64,000 nucleotides of DNA from Dictyostelium discoideum. Taxonomy: Eukaryota. The stretch is from the NCBI GenBank assembly GCA_000004695.1, contig CM000151.3, positions 4,448,001-4,512,000 of the forward strand, given 5' to 3'. The notes under the pieces are model-generated. The model had not been told where the DNA came from and searched no databases. It saw nothing but the letters and a program-made list of their open reading frames with translations. Positions within the stretch are counted from its first letter, which is position 1. Each line of letters begins with the position of its first letter. The position numbers were made by a program, and so were the translations under genes. Shown piece after piece: positions 7,236 to 48,487 of this stretch.

Positions 7236-8715
<1,480 letters not shown>

Positions 8716-9215
8716 AAATAATAATTTGTAAAAAAAAAAAAAAGAAAAAAACATTTTTGTTTATATTTATATTATATTTTTTTTAAGTGTTTTTTAAATT
8801 GGACAATGTTCTTGGAAAATATTTAAAATCAATATTAAATGATTTGTTTTAATTTTTAAATGAAATTACCAAAAAAGAAAGAACCCCTTTGTCAACTTTT
8901 CCATTTTTTCTTTTTTTTTTTTTTTTTCAATTTTTAACCTATAAATAATACATTAAGAATGTATTGAACATGTTTAAAGTTTACAAAGGATTTTCTTTTA
9001 TTAATTTTACTTTTTAACAAATTTATAAATATAAAAAAAACTTGGAAGTTGATAAAGGGATTTCTTTGTAGATTTGCTAAAAGGTAATATTATTTCAAAG
9101 ATTTTTTAAATGTTTTTAATGTCAATATAATATGTTTTTAATTTTTATATAATTAGTTTTATTTTATTTATTTTATTTATGTTTTTAATATTTTATTTTT
9201 TTTTATTTTATTTTT

Positions 9216-27690
<18,475 letters not shown>

Positions 27691-28399: not shown

Positions 28400-30843
28400 A
28401 TGAAATCATATTATTATTTATTATTTGTATTTTTGATAATTTCCAATATTTTAAAGGTAACAAAATCTGATTTTTTATCATTTATTGGCCCTATTGATAT
28501 TGAAGATAATTCCTTTTTCGATCAATCTGTTTGGTCACCACAAAAAATTCCAACATTTTCAGATTCACTTTTAATTGGAAATGGAGCCACTTGTTGGATT
28601 ACACCATATGATAGTATTGCTTTATCCAATTCTTTAAAAATAACCAATGATTCAGTATTAGCATTAACTGGAGATTATGGAATTGATGAAAAATTTGAAT
28701 TATTTGGTGGAAATTTAATAATGGCCTTAAGATCTAATCTCCTTGCAGGTACAATCACTGCTGAAAATAGTACAATTTTAATTCAAAACTTTTTTACACA
28801 TATCAACGATTTTGATTATGATGCAATTGTAAAAGATACAAATATAACAATTTCCAGTTTTGCTACTTTATTAGTTCGTAAGTTAACCAATTCATTTAAA
28901 AAAAAATAAATAAAAATAAAAAAATATTAATTTATTTTCCGAAAAAAAAAAAAGATCATAATTCAACATTTTCATTAGATAATTCAAGTTTAACAGTTAT
29001 TAATAATGGTTATGTTGGAATTGGCGAAAATACTAAATTTTATTTAACATATCCATTAATTATGAATGATGTTAGTTTAATGGAATGTATTGGTGGTGTA
29101 ATTTGGATTAATAAATTTGATTGTTTTTTAGAATCTGAAATGAAAATTTTTGATTCAAATATTACATTTTTTGATACTGTTAATTTTTATGATTATTCAA
29201 AAGTATCATTTATTGATACCAGAGTGTTAGTACTTGGTAATATTAATTCGTATGGTAATGTAACGACAATAGTGTATGGTGGTAGTTTACTTTTAAATGG
29301 TGATTATAAGTTAAGAGATAGTTCAAGATTTTTAGTAAATGGTAAAGATACAATGGTATTTGTTAGAGGTGAATTCTCAAATATAGATGATTCAATTTTT
29401 TATTTAAATCAAAGTCAATTCCTGGTGTATGGACATGCATCATTCTCAAGTCAAAGCTACTTTGATAGTGGTTTATTCGTTGTTAATAATATTGCTATTT
29501 GGAATGGATGGGTGTTGGGTAATTATACAAATTTCGTAGTGAATGGTTCATTGGTAATTAACACATCCTATGCATCTATGGTTGAAAGTCATATTGTATC
29601 AATTGGTGATATTACAGTCAACGGTATTCTAACAACTACCAATACACGTCTTTATGTGGATCAAGGTAATTTCATTGTTAGTGATAATGCAATTCTTCAA
29701 TTAATTGGCTCAGAAGCTAGAATTAATTCAGGTCAATTAAAAATCCATCCATTGGCATATATTGATATTGTGAATTCAAGTTTCACATTGATTACAGGTA
29801 ACGTTGATACATTGGGTAACGTTTATTTAGATAGTAGTTCAGATTTAAGTAATCAAAATGGTACTTATAATCTTTATTCTGGAATTTACTATACAAATGA
29901 TACAACTGTTAAAAGTAACAATGTTACAGTTTTAAATGATGGTGTTTTCAATGTGGCTAATAATTCCGTTCAAATCAATGTTGCATTTACAAATAGTGGT
30001 AATAATTCAAATATTGCTCAATTAAATATCAATAATAATACATTATTCATTTATGATTTTAAAAATGAAAATGGTGGTGAAATAACATTAAATGGTGGTA
30101 CTTTTTCAAGTGACAATTCAATTCAATTAAATGGTGGTTCAATTAAAGGAAGTGGTTCATTCAATACTTCAATCAATCAATCAAATGGTCAATTTGGTTC
30201 AAAATCAACTGTTAATAATTTTAATATTACTGGTGATTTCATTCAATCAAATAATTCAAATAATAATACAAAAATTATCATTGTAATTGATTCATTAGAT
30301 TCTTTCTCAACTTTAAATATTGGTAATTTAGCTGATATTAATGGTATAATTGAAATTAGAATTAATCAAGATATTTTAAAAAATTTAAATAATAATAATA
30401 ATAATAATAATAATCTTGAATCAAATTTATCATCTCAAAGTGGTAGTAGTAGTGATGGTATAAAGTCAGCATCATTTAATTTAATTAGTTATAATAGTAA
30501 GACATCAAATAGTTTTAATAATATTCAATTTAAAAGTTATGATCCAAAGAGTGGTAGTGAAAGTGATATTGATAAGAATTCTTGTATTCAACCAAAATCA
30601 AAAAGTGGTTCTTCCTCTTTCTCTGTATTATTAGAACAAAATGAAGACTGTGCTAATGGAGGTGATGGTGGTGGTGGCAAAAGTAAAATATCAGGTGGTG
30701 CAATTGCAGGTATTGTAATCGGTTGTGCAGTTTTAGCAATTATTATCATATCTACAGTACACTATCGTGAAAGATTAAGATTGTTTAAAATAAACACTTC
30801 AAGAAAAATTCGTAGTATGTCTGTAAAATTAACAAAAAAATAA
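28400..30843 (+). CDS. Type-I membrane glycoprotein, ~788 aa, two exons: 28400..28877 and 28955..30843. It has an N-terminal signal peptide, a long Asn/Ser/Thr-rich ectodomain with many N-x-S/T sites and beta-rich repeats, one C-terminal TM helix, and a short basic tail. The intron is 28878..28954 (GTAAGT...AAAAAG, phase 1).
   Basis: Signal peptide MKSYYYLLFVFLIISNILKVTKS. ORFs 28400..28909 and 29062..30843 join through ...ATLLV|H|NFTFSLDNSSLTVINNGYVGIGENTKFYLTYPLIMNDVSL.... The C-terminus is ...GGAIAGIVIGCAVLAIIIISTVHYRERLRLFKINTSRKIRSMSVKLTKK. The repeats (e.g. NGGTFSSDNSIQLNGGSIKGSG) are reminiscent of parallel beta-helix / polymorphic-membrane-protein-type repeats, but I could not confirm this by eye. 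Confidence 0.7.
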
Positions 30844-30974
30844 ATTTTTTCTGTATTCCAAATCAATATCATTCATTTTTATTATTATTATTTTTTTTTT
30901 TTTTTGAATTATTTAATATTTATTTGTAATAACCTTCGCTATATGGGTATTTTAATTTTTGTTTTAAAGACCTA

Positions 30975-31133
30975 GATAATTTTGAACACTAAAATTTAAT
31001 AAATAAAAAAAAAAAATAACAAAAGAATTTTTTTAATTTCTTTTTTTTTTTTTTTTTTTTTTTTTTTCTTATTTTTTTTTTTCTTTTTTTTTTTTTTTTA
31101 ATTCTCTAATAAATTTTAGTGTTTGAAATTATC
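30975..31133. repeat. Inverted-repeat element ~130 bp downstream of the glycoprotein stop. It has ~27-bp arms (gataattttgaacactaaaatttaata / taataaattttagtgtttgaaattatc, ~85% complementary) separated by ~103 bp of T-runs.
   Basis: Read directly on the plus strand. Arm 1 is 30975..31001 and arm 2 is 31107..31133. Confidence 0.45.
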
Positions 31134-31207
31134 TAAACAATTTTAAAAAAAAAAATACAAAATAAAAAAAAAAGAAAAATTGAAGGAAAAATTTAAATTG
31201 AATCATG

Positions 31208-31223
31208 ACCAAGGAACCTTGGT
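31208..31223. promoter_or_regulatory. Perfect GC-containing palindrome ACCAAGG-AA-CCTTGGT in AT-only intergenic DNA, ~530 bp upstream of the His/Gly-rich gene.
   Basis: catgaccaaggaaccttggttat was read directly. It has 7-bp perfect arms. Candidate dimeric transcription-factor site. Confidence 0.3.
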
Positions 31224-31271
31224 TATTATAATAATAACAAAATAATTAAAATATCTAAAAAATAATTTTTT

Positions 31272-31322
<51 letters not shown>

Positions 31323-31335
31323 TGCATGGTCAAAT

Positions 31336-31696
31336 AACGTTATTATTTTTTTTTTTTGAGTGTGAGATATTTAATTTTTATTTCTTAAAATTTAAATTAA
31401 TTTTTTTTGTAACGTTGTACGTGGTAAAAATAGAAAAAAATAAAAAAAATAAAAAAAGAAAAGAAAATAATTTAAAAAAATTAAAATTCATCAAAAGAAC
31501 AAAAAAAAAAAACGTTATTCATGGGATTTTAACAATTACCACCCCCTTTTAAATATTTATTATTGAAAATTCAATAATAATGTAAAACGTTACGTAATTT
31601 TAATGGATTTTTTTTTTTTTTTTTTTTTCACATTAAAATAATCCTATAAATAGTTAATTTTTTTTTTTTTATTCAATATTAAATTAAAAACGTTAC
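31336..31696. promoter_or_regulatory. Array of five AACGTTA(Y) motifs at 31336, 31411, 31512, 31587 and 31690, spaced 75/101/75/103 bp. This is consistent with 2.x copies of a ~176-bp tandemly duplicated promoter module upstream of the ATG at 31756.
   Basis: caaatAACGTTAtt, ttgtAACGTTGTACGTgg, aaaaAACGTTAttcatgg, taaAACGTTACGTAat and aaaAACGTTActaat. CpG is otherwise very rare in this intergenic DNA. The second and fourth copies each carry an extra ACGT half-site. Confidence 0.4.
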
Positions 31697-31755
31697 TAAT
31701 AAAAACAAATAAATATTATATCAAATAAATTAATAATAATAAAAAATTTTAAAAA

Positions 31756-32527
31756 ATGGAACAACAACAAAATCAAACAGAATCAGTTAATAATAATTCA
31801 ACAAAAGTTTGTGAAACATTTCTCCAAAACTTACCAACTGATGTAAAAGAAAGAAAGCAATACATTTGCCAAGTTAAGAAAGCTCTCAAAGAAGAAAAAA
31901 GAAAATTAAAACAAACTAAATATGAAAAGTATGGGAAACAATGCAAACGTGATAAACACGACAAACATGACAAACATGACAAACATGACAAACATGACAA
32001 ACATGACAAGCATGACAAACATGAAGGTTATTTCCACGGCCACCGTTATCACCATGGAGGTCATCCAGAGTGTCCATCAGTAGGTTATCCAGTTCACCAT
32101 GGTTACCAAGGTTTCCCAGGTCACCATTTCGGCGGTCATCATGGTCATCACTTTGGTGGTGGTCATCATAGCTATCCAGGTCATCACGGGTCATCAAGGC
32201 TTCCCAGGTCATCATTTCGGTGGTGGTCATCATGGTCATCACTTTGGTGGTGGTCACCATGGTCACCATTTCGGTGGTCATCATGGTCATCATGATGCAA
32301 TGAATGATTGGAGTGTACAAAGTAAAATCAATCATTTAATTAGTAAGAAACAAGTTCTTATTGCTAAAACTCAATTAATTGAATCTAAAATTGCTGCTTT
32401 AACTGAAATAAATCAAACTACAACTACAACTACCACTGCTACTGCTGCACCATCAACTCCAACTCCAACTCCAACAACACCTCAACAACCAATTGACTCT
32501 GTTATCGGAAGTTTTAGTCAAATGTAA
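31756..32527 (+). CDS. His/Gly-rich repeat protein. It has an N-terminal basic region with (KHD)7, then HHGHHFGGG / GYQGFPGHHFGG repeats, then a C-terminal coiled-coil and a Thr/Pro-rich tail. The reading frame needs a -1 correction near 32189-32191 (an extra G in 'cacggg'). It is a frameshifted gene, a pseudogene, or a reference error.
   Basis: ORF 31756..32295 encodes MEQQQNQTESVNNNSTKVCETFLQNLPTDVKERKQYICQVKKALKEEKRKLKQTKYEKYGKQCKRDKHDKHDKHDKHDKHDKHDKHDKHEGYFHGHRYHHGGHPECPSVGYPVHHGYQGFPGHHFGGHHGHHFGGGHHSYPGHH, then runs into a Trp/Ser-rich nonsense tail. ORF 32099..32527 in the +2 frame continues the same repeat (GHQGFPGHHFGGGHHGHHFGGGHHGHHFGGHHGHHDAMNDWSVQSKINHLISKKQVLIAKTQLIESKIAALTEINQTTTTTTTATAAPSTPTPTPTTPQQPIDSVIGSFSQM*). 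Deleting one G from ggtcatcacGggtcatcaaggcttccca restores HHGHQGFPGHHFGGG. Confidence 0.6.

Positions 32528-46957: not shown

Positions 46958-48487
<1,530 letters not shown>

Follow-up and report, generated by a model that had tools for sequence, protein, structure and literature searches.

Why should five copies of one CpG-containing hexamer crowd into the DNA just upstream of a single Dictyostelium gene? The window analyzed here (the whole stretch of DNA, 64 kb) has a G+C content of about 22%, long homopolymer runs, and Dictyostelium-type genes, which include a very large VPS13-like open reading frame, triose-phosphate isomerase, and two actin genes. One of its intergenic regions, 912 bp long and bounded by the stop codon of an upstream plus-strand gene (30841 to 30843) and the ATG of a His/Gly-rich gene (31756), carries AACGTT five times, with starts at 31336, 31411, 31511, 31586, and 31689. 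A preliminary description of this DNA had seen in these copies either a dedicated cis-regulatory array, for instance one for a metal- or stress-responsive factor, or a small satellite.

The gene downstream of the cluster (31756 to 32527, plus strand) encodes an extremely His-rich protein; its N-terminal helix is conserved, and its C-terminal part is a heptad coiled coil. In the sequence given, the reading frame is broken by a +1 frameshift near 32186 to 32189, and the orthologs P0001 and P0002 are intact. Pfam returned no match for the reconstructed protein. Searches with this protein recovered Dictyostelium proteins only, and a full HMM scan of 1.84 billion representatives found six, all of them from group-4 dictyostelids. 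A noncoding RNA or tRNA gene in the intergenic region was considered and rejected, given that no Rfam family matched between 30500 and 32000 at an E value of ≤1 and no tRNA was present.

The cluster itself is real, statistically strong, and partly conserved. AACGTT occurs 13 times in the window, against 10.4 ± 2.8 expected, so its total is unremarkable, and 5 of the 13 occurrences lie in this one promoter. That observation of five copies within 360 bp, made in the preliminary description, was borne out: none of 1,000 dinucleotide-preserving shuffles of the window reached it (the maximum was 3), and none of 2,000 shuffles of the intergenic region alone exceeded 3. As a one-motif cluster upstream of a core promoter, the copies are thus over-represented. 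The scarcity of CpG in AT-rich DNA was likewise confirmed, with 2.8 CpGs per kb in other AT-rich tiles versus 15 per kb between 31300 and 31755, and all seven CpGs of that interval lie inside ACGT cores. Some details needed correction. The first two start coordinates had been right and the other three (31512, 31587, and 31690) one base too high, and the spacing is therefore 75/100/75/103 rather than 75/101/75/103. The core AACGTT holds for every copy, but AACGTTA does not, because copy 2 reads AACGTTG on the plus strand and AACGTTA on the minus strand only. Copies 2 and 4 had also been given the common extension AACGTTRYACGT; copy 4 reads AACGTTACGTAA and therefore does not fit it, its second ACGT beginning 5 nt after the first, versus 7 nt in copy 2.

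Two ways of producing such a cluster without selection on each copy can be weighed at this point. One is that it arose by chance or from the composition of AT-rich intergenic DNA, for which the unexceptional window-wide total could be cited. Five copies were never reached in any whole-window or local shuffle, however, and the cluster recurs in independent paralog promoters, which makes an accident of this kind extremely improbable. The other is that the motifs derive from about 2.5 tandem copies of a module of about 176 bp and recur through repetition of the unit. The alternating 75/100/75/103 spacing, seen in this one genome, is its sole support, and the sequence of the putative units speaks against it. 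Tandem Repeats Finder and a repeat finder reported no 176-bp unit, no tandem array, and no direct-repeat family of that period. The interval from 31336 to 31510, aligned to that from 31511 to 31688, scored z = 0.39 relative to shuffles, so that head-to-tail units alike over their whole length are not what is found here. A self-comparison, which had been suggested as a way of confirming the period, gave identities of 0.33 to 0.35 at lags of 175 to 178, below the all-lag mean of 0.375. Moreover, the flanks of the five copies are mutually unrelated, and the orthologous promoters are spaced 64/81/74/122 and 77/100/105/104/92. The tandem module and the small satellite are both refuted by these results, and an origin of the motifs in unit repetition is hardly credible. 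Spread of the motif by a mobile element was also considered and rejected, since the flanks are unrelated and about 180 kb of fetched sequence contains no further clusters.

What the copies have in common becomes clear when they are pooled with those of related promoters. A logo built from 28 sites is a symmetric 10-bp palindrome, RTAACGTTAY, with a purine at position -2 in 25 of 28 sites and a pyrimidine at the mirror position in 26, and with T at position -1 in 19 and A at its mirror position in 21. Its outer positions carry 32% G and 43% C against a background of 7%. The symmetry of the logo suggests that the element would be read by a dimer.

Within the promoter, site 1 (31322 to 31343) contains a perfect 10-bp palindrome, ATAACGTTAT, at 31334 to 31343 and a conserved upstream flank, GTGCATGGTCAA; the block GTGYATGGTCAAATAACGTTA is identical in Dictyostelium dimigraforme. 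Site 2 (31409 to 31424, plus strand) is composite, a further ACGT core (ACGTGG) coming 2 nt after GTAACGTT, and both TTTTTTTTGTAACGTT and ACGTGG are invariant in 3/3 orthologs. Site 3 (31509 to 31518) reads AAAACGTTAT, of which AACGTTA is invariant in three species, and it is followed by two further conserved blocks, TGGGATTTTAA at 31522 to 31532 and CCACCC at 31539 to 31544. A second conserved element, unrelated to AACGTT, lies at 31564 to 31577. This 14-bp block, TGAAAATTCAATAA, is invariant in three species and holds a GAA-NN-TTC dyad (31565 to 31572); its portion CTGAAAATTCAA recurs in Dictyostelium citrinum, in the promoter of the short paralog. Site 4 (31584 to 31601, minus strand) is again composite, with AACGTT overlapping the palindrome TTACGTAA (31590 to 31597). 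Its ACGTAATTTT is invariant in three species, and (G/A)TAACGTAAT is kept at the corresponding position in Dictyostelium firmibasis and in the paralog L003.

These four copies all precede a conserved TATA box at 31644 to 31653 (plus strand; CTATAAATAG, of which CTATAAAT is invariant in three species), which is followed by an oligo-dT run at 31658 to 31670. The fifth, site 5 (31687 to 31696, minus strand; AAAACGTTAC), is found 44 bp past the TATA box, with 67 bp between it and the ATG, and its AACGTTAC is invariant in 3/3 orthologs. The order of TATA box, T run, and AACGTTAC is found in paralog promoters too. On the coding strand, the proximal copy has the sequence AACGTTAC in every one of the nine promoters with the element; eight of these place it 35 to 44 bp past the aligned TATA box, and L003 places it 59 bp past. 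Dictyostelium transcription usually begins immediately past the stretch of oligo-dT behind the TATA box, and site 5 is therefore probably located at or just after the predicted transcription start.

Comparison of homologous genes indicates which of these features persist. The syntenic orthologs are those of D. dimigraforme (L001) and D. firmibasis (L002). In the former, all five sites are kept in unchanged order; in the latter, four aligned sites are kept, one of them as AACGTA, and two extra copies lie further upstream. In the alignment of the three species, the G+C-containing blocks that never vary are T8-GTAACGTT, ACGTGG, AACGTTA, TGGGATTTTAA, CCACCC, TGAAAATTCAATAA, ACGTAATTTT, CTATAAAT, and AACGTTAC, and G or C bases are invariant at 11 of 14 positions in ACGT cores versus 17 of 49 outside them (Fisher P = 0.005). 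Nevertheless, the orthologous promoters still align when the motifs are masked (z = 36 and 13), and so conservation among such close species is by itself weak evidence.

The paralogs carry more weight. A second long paralog, L003, has five AACGTT copies and one AACGTA within 373 bp upstream of its ATG. A short paralog, which lacks the long His/Gly tract, was compared in five genomes (L005, L006, L008, L009, and L010; the gene is DDB_G0277209 in AX4). Each of these five promoters has two to four sites, always including the TATA-proximal AACGTTAC, and ATAACGTTAT is the invariant distal site in every one. Pooled over the nine positive promoters, AACGTT reaches 7.3 per kb, whereas the other 156 kb of sequence has 0.17 per kb; these nine promoters represent three independent lineages only, and their sites could have been inherited at gene duplication. 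A further gene copy, L004, has no promoter and has decayed to a pseudogene.

The array is not shared by the whole family. For its two most distant members, Dictyostelium purpureum P0011 (L011) and a third His-rich paralog, P0012 (L012), we had predicted beforehand at least two AACGTT copies, including a TATA-proximal AACGTTAC; neither has a single AACGTT or even an ACGT in the 800 bp upstream. The array is thus present in three of five sampled lineages. Two look-alikes in L012, GTAACATTAT and AAACATTAG, are not significant, given that AACATT/AATGTT has a background density of 1.86 per kb and about 0.9 matches are expected per 500 bp. Sites are retained in two orthologs and two paralog lineages and absent from L011 and L012, and the orthologs are alignable outside the motif as well.

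Because the cluster is real, exceeds chance, and is kept in related species and sister genes, the AACGTT copies are probably binding sites for a factor, and the cluster is most likely a set of transcription factor binding sites. The retention of the sites in the same order in orthologous and two paralogous promoters fits the proposal of a dedicated cis-regulatory array. We propose, with reasonable though incomplete confidence, that the interval from 31322 to 31696 is a promoter with five sites of one type, RTAACGTTAY, for a predicted dimeric factor, and that the same element would co-regulate at least three paralogous gene lineages. The promoter would serve a His/Gly-rich coiled-coil gene limited to the D. 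discoideum species group. A sequence-specific and probably dimeric transcription factor would bind four sites upstream of the TATA box and a fifth some 44 bp beyond it, at the predicted start, and two of the sites would be composite, with further ACGT-core half-sites (ACGTGG and TTACGTAA). This proposal draws on sequence comparison, which bears it out in three independent lineages and goes against it in two more distant ones, together with expression data from one paralog. The clustering, the palindromic logo, and the retention of sites in orthologs and two paralog lineages are observed; from these we infer protein binding at the sites, binding as a dimer, and the position of the transcription start. 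In several respects the array resembles one-type binding-site clusters of other eukaryotic promoters, which likewise place several motif copies in the 400 bp or so ahead of the TATA box, with irregular and species-variable spacing and with number and order kept. It differs from them in that a single copy has a fixed position and a fixed orientation just past the TATA box.

That fixed copy invites another interpretation, namely, that site 5 works at the level of the transcript, as an element of the 5′ leader that affects translation or stability, and that the upstream copies are unrelated to it. The position of AACGTTAC past the TATA box in eight of nine promoters and its constant orientation on the coding strand do imply that site 5 is probably transcribed. 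Ahead of the TATA box, however, the same palindromic word is found in both orientations, which suggests that double-stranded DNA is recognized, and the Rfam search of the region matched nothing; a role confined to the transcript is accordingly very unlikely. Somewhat less improbable, yet still unlikely, is the idea that AACGTTA is bound by a metal- or stress-sensing factor, which thereby turns on a His-rich protein that buffers metal. The extreme His content of the product would suit it, as would the conserved GAA-NN-TTC dyad, which resembles two units of a heat shock element (HSE), and a metal-responsive factor with an undescribed site is compatible with all of the results. Against it, the short paralogs carry the same sites without a long His/Gly tract, the one paralog with expression data is developmentally regulated, late, and in cup cells, and the nine promoters contain no MRE (TGCRCNC), no ZRE (ACCTTNAAGGT), and no three-unit HSE. 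These were among nine known patterns scanned (MRE, ZRE, two HSE forms, GAANNTTC, CCAAGG, Myb YAACKG, CRE, and W-box). Only two of the nine gave matches: the two-unit GAANNTTC was matched in four of nine promoters, where it is only 1.9 times denser than elsewhere, and the W-box in three of nine; with nine short patterns tried, such matches are expected by chance and serve as leads only. The metal- or stress-responsive array of the preliminary description hence found no support here.

If the five copies are binding sites of one factor, when and where that factor acts may be suggested by the family member with expression data, DDB_G0277209, the only one for which such data were available. Its transcript rises at 16 to 24 h and is cup specific, with 46 transcripts per million (TPM) in cup cells versus 0.7 in spores, 1.2 in stalk cells, and 0.8 in vegetative cells (PMC6198379, supplementary file 5). 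Among the supplement rows listed, there is no expression record for the window gene or its dictyBase neighbors. DDB_G0277209 is likewise absent among the listed rows of the cdl1a-knockout RNA sequencing supplement and among those of the MybE/DimB array table (PMC2845816), and no main-text literature was found on it or on a "histidine-rich" Dictyostelium gene. Transcription factors enriched in cup cells include mybE, bzpH, bzpD, and a cudA-like factor, and mybE is the second most abundant of them, at 903 TPM and 8.4-fold enrichment (PMC6198379). The pathways that drive gene expression in cup cells have been described as unknown (PMC8808424).

In the open-access literature, we found no paper that mentions the AACGTT element; motif queries returned primers and unrelated oligonucleotides. 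Among published Dictyostelium sites, the nearest is the consensus for MybE, AAC(A/T)GTT, a sequence longer by one base that was derived from three sites in the ecmA and mrrA promoters (Fukuzawa 2006 and Tsujioka 2007, summarized in PMC2845816). Both are Dictyostelium sites with inverted AAC...GTT half-sites, and the cup enrichment of mybE matches the cup-specific expression of the one paralog with data. The central A/T of the MybE site is missing from the window element (AAC|GTT). AAC(A/T)GTT itself is absent from the window promoter and from eight of the nine positive promoters, with one match at L008:2969, and the canonical Myb site YAACKG is absent from the window, L001, L003, L006, L009, and L010 promoters. 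The MybE/DimB study reported no enrichment of the MybE consensus in MybE-dependent promoters, and its authors wrote that both consensus sites should be defined better (PMC2845816). The DimB consensus, A(C/A)AC(A/C)(T/A)CA (PMC2845816), is unrelated to the window element. Were MybE the reader, its poorly defined consensus would have to be widened to AAC(N0-1)GTT. A further point of resemblance to the MybE site is a homologous block that reads AACGTTATGAATGT in L005 and AACTGTTATGAATGT in L012.

Members of the bZIP family are another candidate. ACGT-core elements bound by bZIP proteins include the G-box CACGTG, the A-box TACGTA, the PAR/Yap-type TTACGTAA, and the plant "T-box" AACGTT, and described bZIP half-sites are TGAC, TTAC, CCAC, and TTGC. 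The window element has an ACGT core with dyad-symmetric flanks, as evidenced by the placement of all seven promoter CpGs in such cores and by the mirrored R/Y and T/A preferences over 28 sites, and it is palindromic about a C|G center. Also, each of the two conserved composite sites contributes a further half-site of classical bZIP type, ACGTGG in one and TTACGTAA in the other. The all-ACGT pattern and these composite partners fit a bZIP factor, and the cup-enriched bzpH and bzpD would be available. The dominant half-site differs, however: only the composite partners correspond to described half-sites, the main one being (R)TAAC, which to our knowledge is not a described bZIP half-site. No canonical CRE is present in the scanned promoters. 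Moreover, the short paralogs conserve an isolated GTAACGAT without an ACGT core, a pattern that is more readily explained if a GTAAC half-site is recognized than if an ACGT core is. Our guess is divided evenly among a MybE-like single-Myb protein, a cup-enriched bZIP (BzpH or BzpD), and something else. Autoregulation by the family proteins as bZIP-like factors was dropped from consideration because no Pfam DNA-binding domain was detected in them at an E value of ≤1.

These observations can be combined into a more specific reading, which we regard as tentative and on balance doubtful, that RTAACGTTAY is an undescribed element of the late cup-cell program, read by MybE or a cup-enriched bZIP, with the start-site copy gating initiation. 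On the same reading, the cup-cell program, which is derived from anterior-like cells, would itself be an innovation of group-4 dictyostelids, and the young family of genes would provide a compact handle, defined at the sequence level, for asking how target genes are acquired by a new cell type. Few cis-regulatory elements have so far been defined in Dictyostelium, and the density of the 10-bp palindrome in the promoters of the three co-retained paralog lineages exceeds that elsewhere about 40-fold. An element with a copy fixed relative to the core promoter is therefore a cheap and concrete target for gel-shift assays (GTAACGTTAC versus GTAAATTTAC), DAP-seq, and reporter mutagenesis.

Finally, the preliminary description had placed a second signal just upstream of the cluster, a perfect inverted repeat with the structure ACCAAGG-AA-CCTTGGT (ACCAAGGAACCTTGGT, 31208 to 31223). 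The repeat exists at exactly that position. It is specific to this genome, being absent from the aligned orthologous promoters L001 and L002, and the intergenic stretch that contains it does not align with the orthologs; its membership in the promoter module is doubtful, and we do not count it as a part. A single AACCTTGGTT occurs in the paralog promoter L003 (5527 to 5536). In the window as a whole, G+C-rich perfect inverted repeats with 7-bp arms are found at two loci, versus 0.34 expected.

Two paralogs of the His/Gly-rich gene share a homologous promoter block, as revealed by comparison of L005:5834-5856, from a locus of the short paralog, which lacks the His/Gly tract, with L012:2596-2620, from the locus of the third His-rich paralog. 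The block reads AACGTTATGAATGT..GTAAC in the former and AACTGTTATGAATGTAAC in the latter, and in this single case (n = 1), an AACGTT site at L005 has an AACTGTT site as its counterpart at L012. The AACTGTT site fits the published MybE consensus, AAC(A/T)GTT. Both loci also contain the 11-mer GTTATGAATGT, for which the chance expectation, estimated by hand, is ~2e-4 per 500 bp.

Another shared promoter element is TGAAAATTCAATAA (window 31564-31577), which contains a GAA-NN-TTC dyad, is unchanged across three species, and is present in part in short-paralog promoters. Dyads of GAA with this "reversed STAT" geometry are binding sites of CudA-family factors, and cup genes require Cdl1a, a cudA-like factor. 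Short-paralog promoters additionally carry TTTCCCA direct repeats on both sides of the distal ATAACGTTAT, the whole reading TTTTCCCACCAATAACGTTATTTTTTTTCCCA (L006:5584-5613 and orthologous positions in L008, L009, and L010, loci of the same paralog in other genomes); long-paralog promoters instead carry a CCACCC block (window 31539-31544). The short-paralog 5' leader of D. discoideum-type genomes contains, downstream of the proximal AACGTTAC and ahead of the ATG, an (AAAT)n microsatellite whose length varies (L006:5881-6000, L009:2903-3000, and L010:2925-2990), whereas the leaders of D. citrinum and D. dimigraforme are without it.

The His/Gly-rich gene itself is split by a +1 frameshift at window 32180-32195 (local sequence, GGTCATCACGGGTCATCAAGG), which leaves open reading frames at 31756-32295 and 32099-32527. 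The frameshift could be a genuine, recent pseudogenization, or else it could be a homopolymer sequencing error; removal of one G would give back ...GHHGHQGFPGHH..., and the reading frame is intact in the orthologs. The protein collection that was searched has no entry identical to either open reading frame. A second copy of the gene, in another genomic context, occurs in one D. cf. discoideum genome (L004:5690-6355), and this copy carries in-frame stops as well as frameshifts. Its similarity to the window begins only ~12 bp upstream of the ATG, and the region upstream of it contains no ACGT. The copy looks like a duplicate that is decayed and without the promoter.

Several other repeats were observed in the window. 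An inverted repeat of ~30 bp (TAGATAATTT..AACACTAAAATTTA, 30972-31004 and 31108-31139) lies on both sides of a long T run, in an intergenic stretch without an equivalent in either ortholog. Possible readings of this repeat are a small inserted element and a sequence able to form a hairpin. Besides the palindrome at 31208-31223, the window contains just one G+C-rich inverted repeat that is perfect over arms of at least 7 bp, ACTTGGGA... (11465-11484), and this one falls within the VPS13-like coding region. On a larger scale, 7236-8717 and 46960-48486 form a 1.5-kb inverted duplication with 95% identity; of the two, the latter was examined, and it encodes a 376-amino-acid actin (47093-48223, minus strand). 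Finally, the upstream gene has two GTAACGTT words 18 bp apart in its coding sequence (29799-29823), and they translate to a repeated Gly-Asn-Val. This pair is taken as a coincidence; D. firmibasis has one of the GTAACGTT copies as well (L002:4301).
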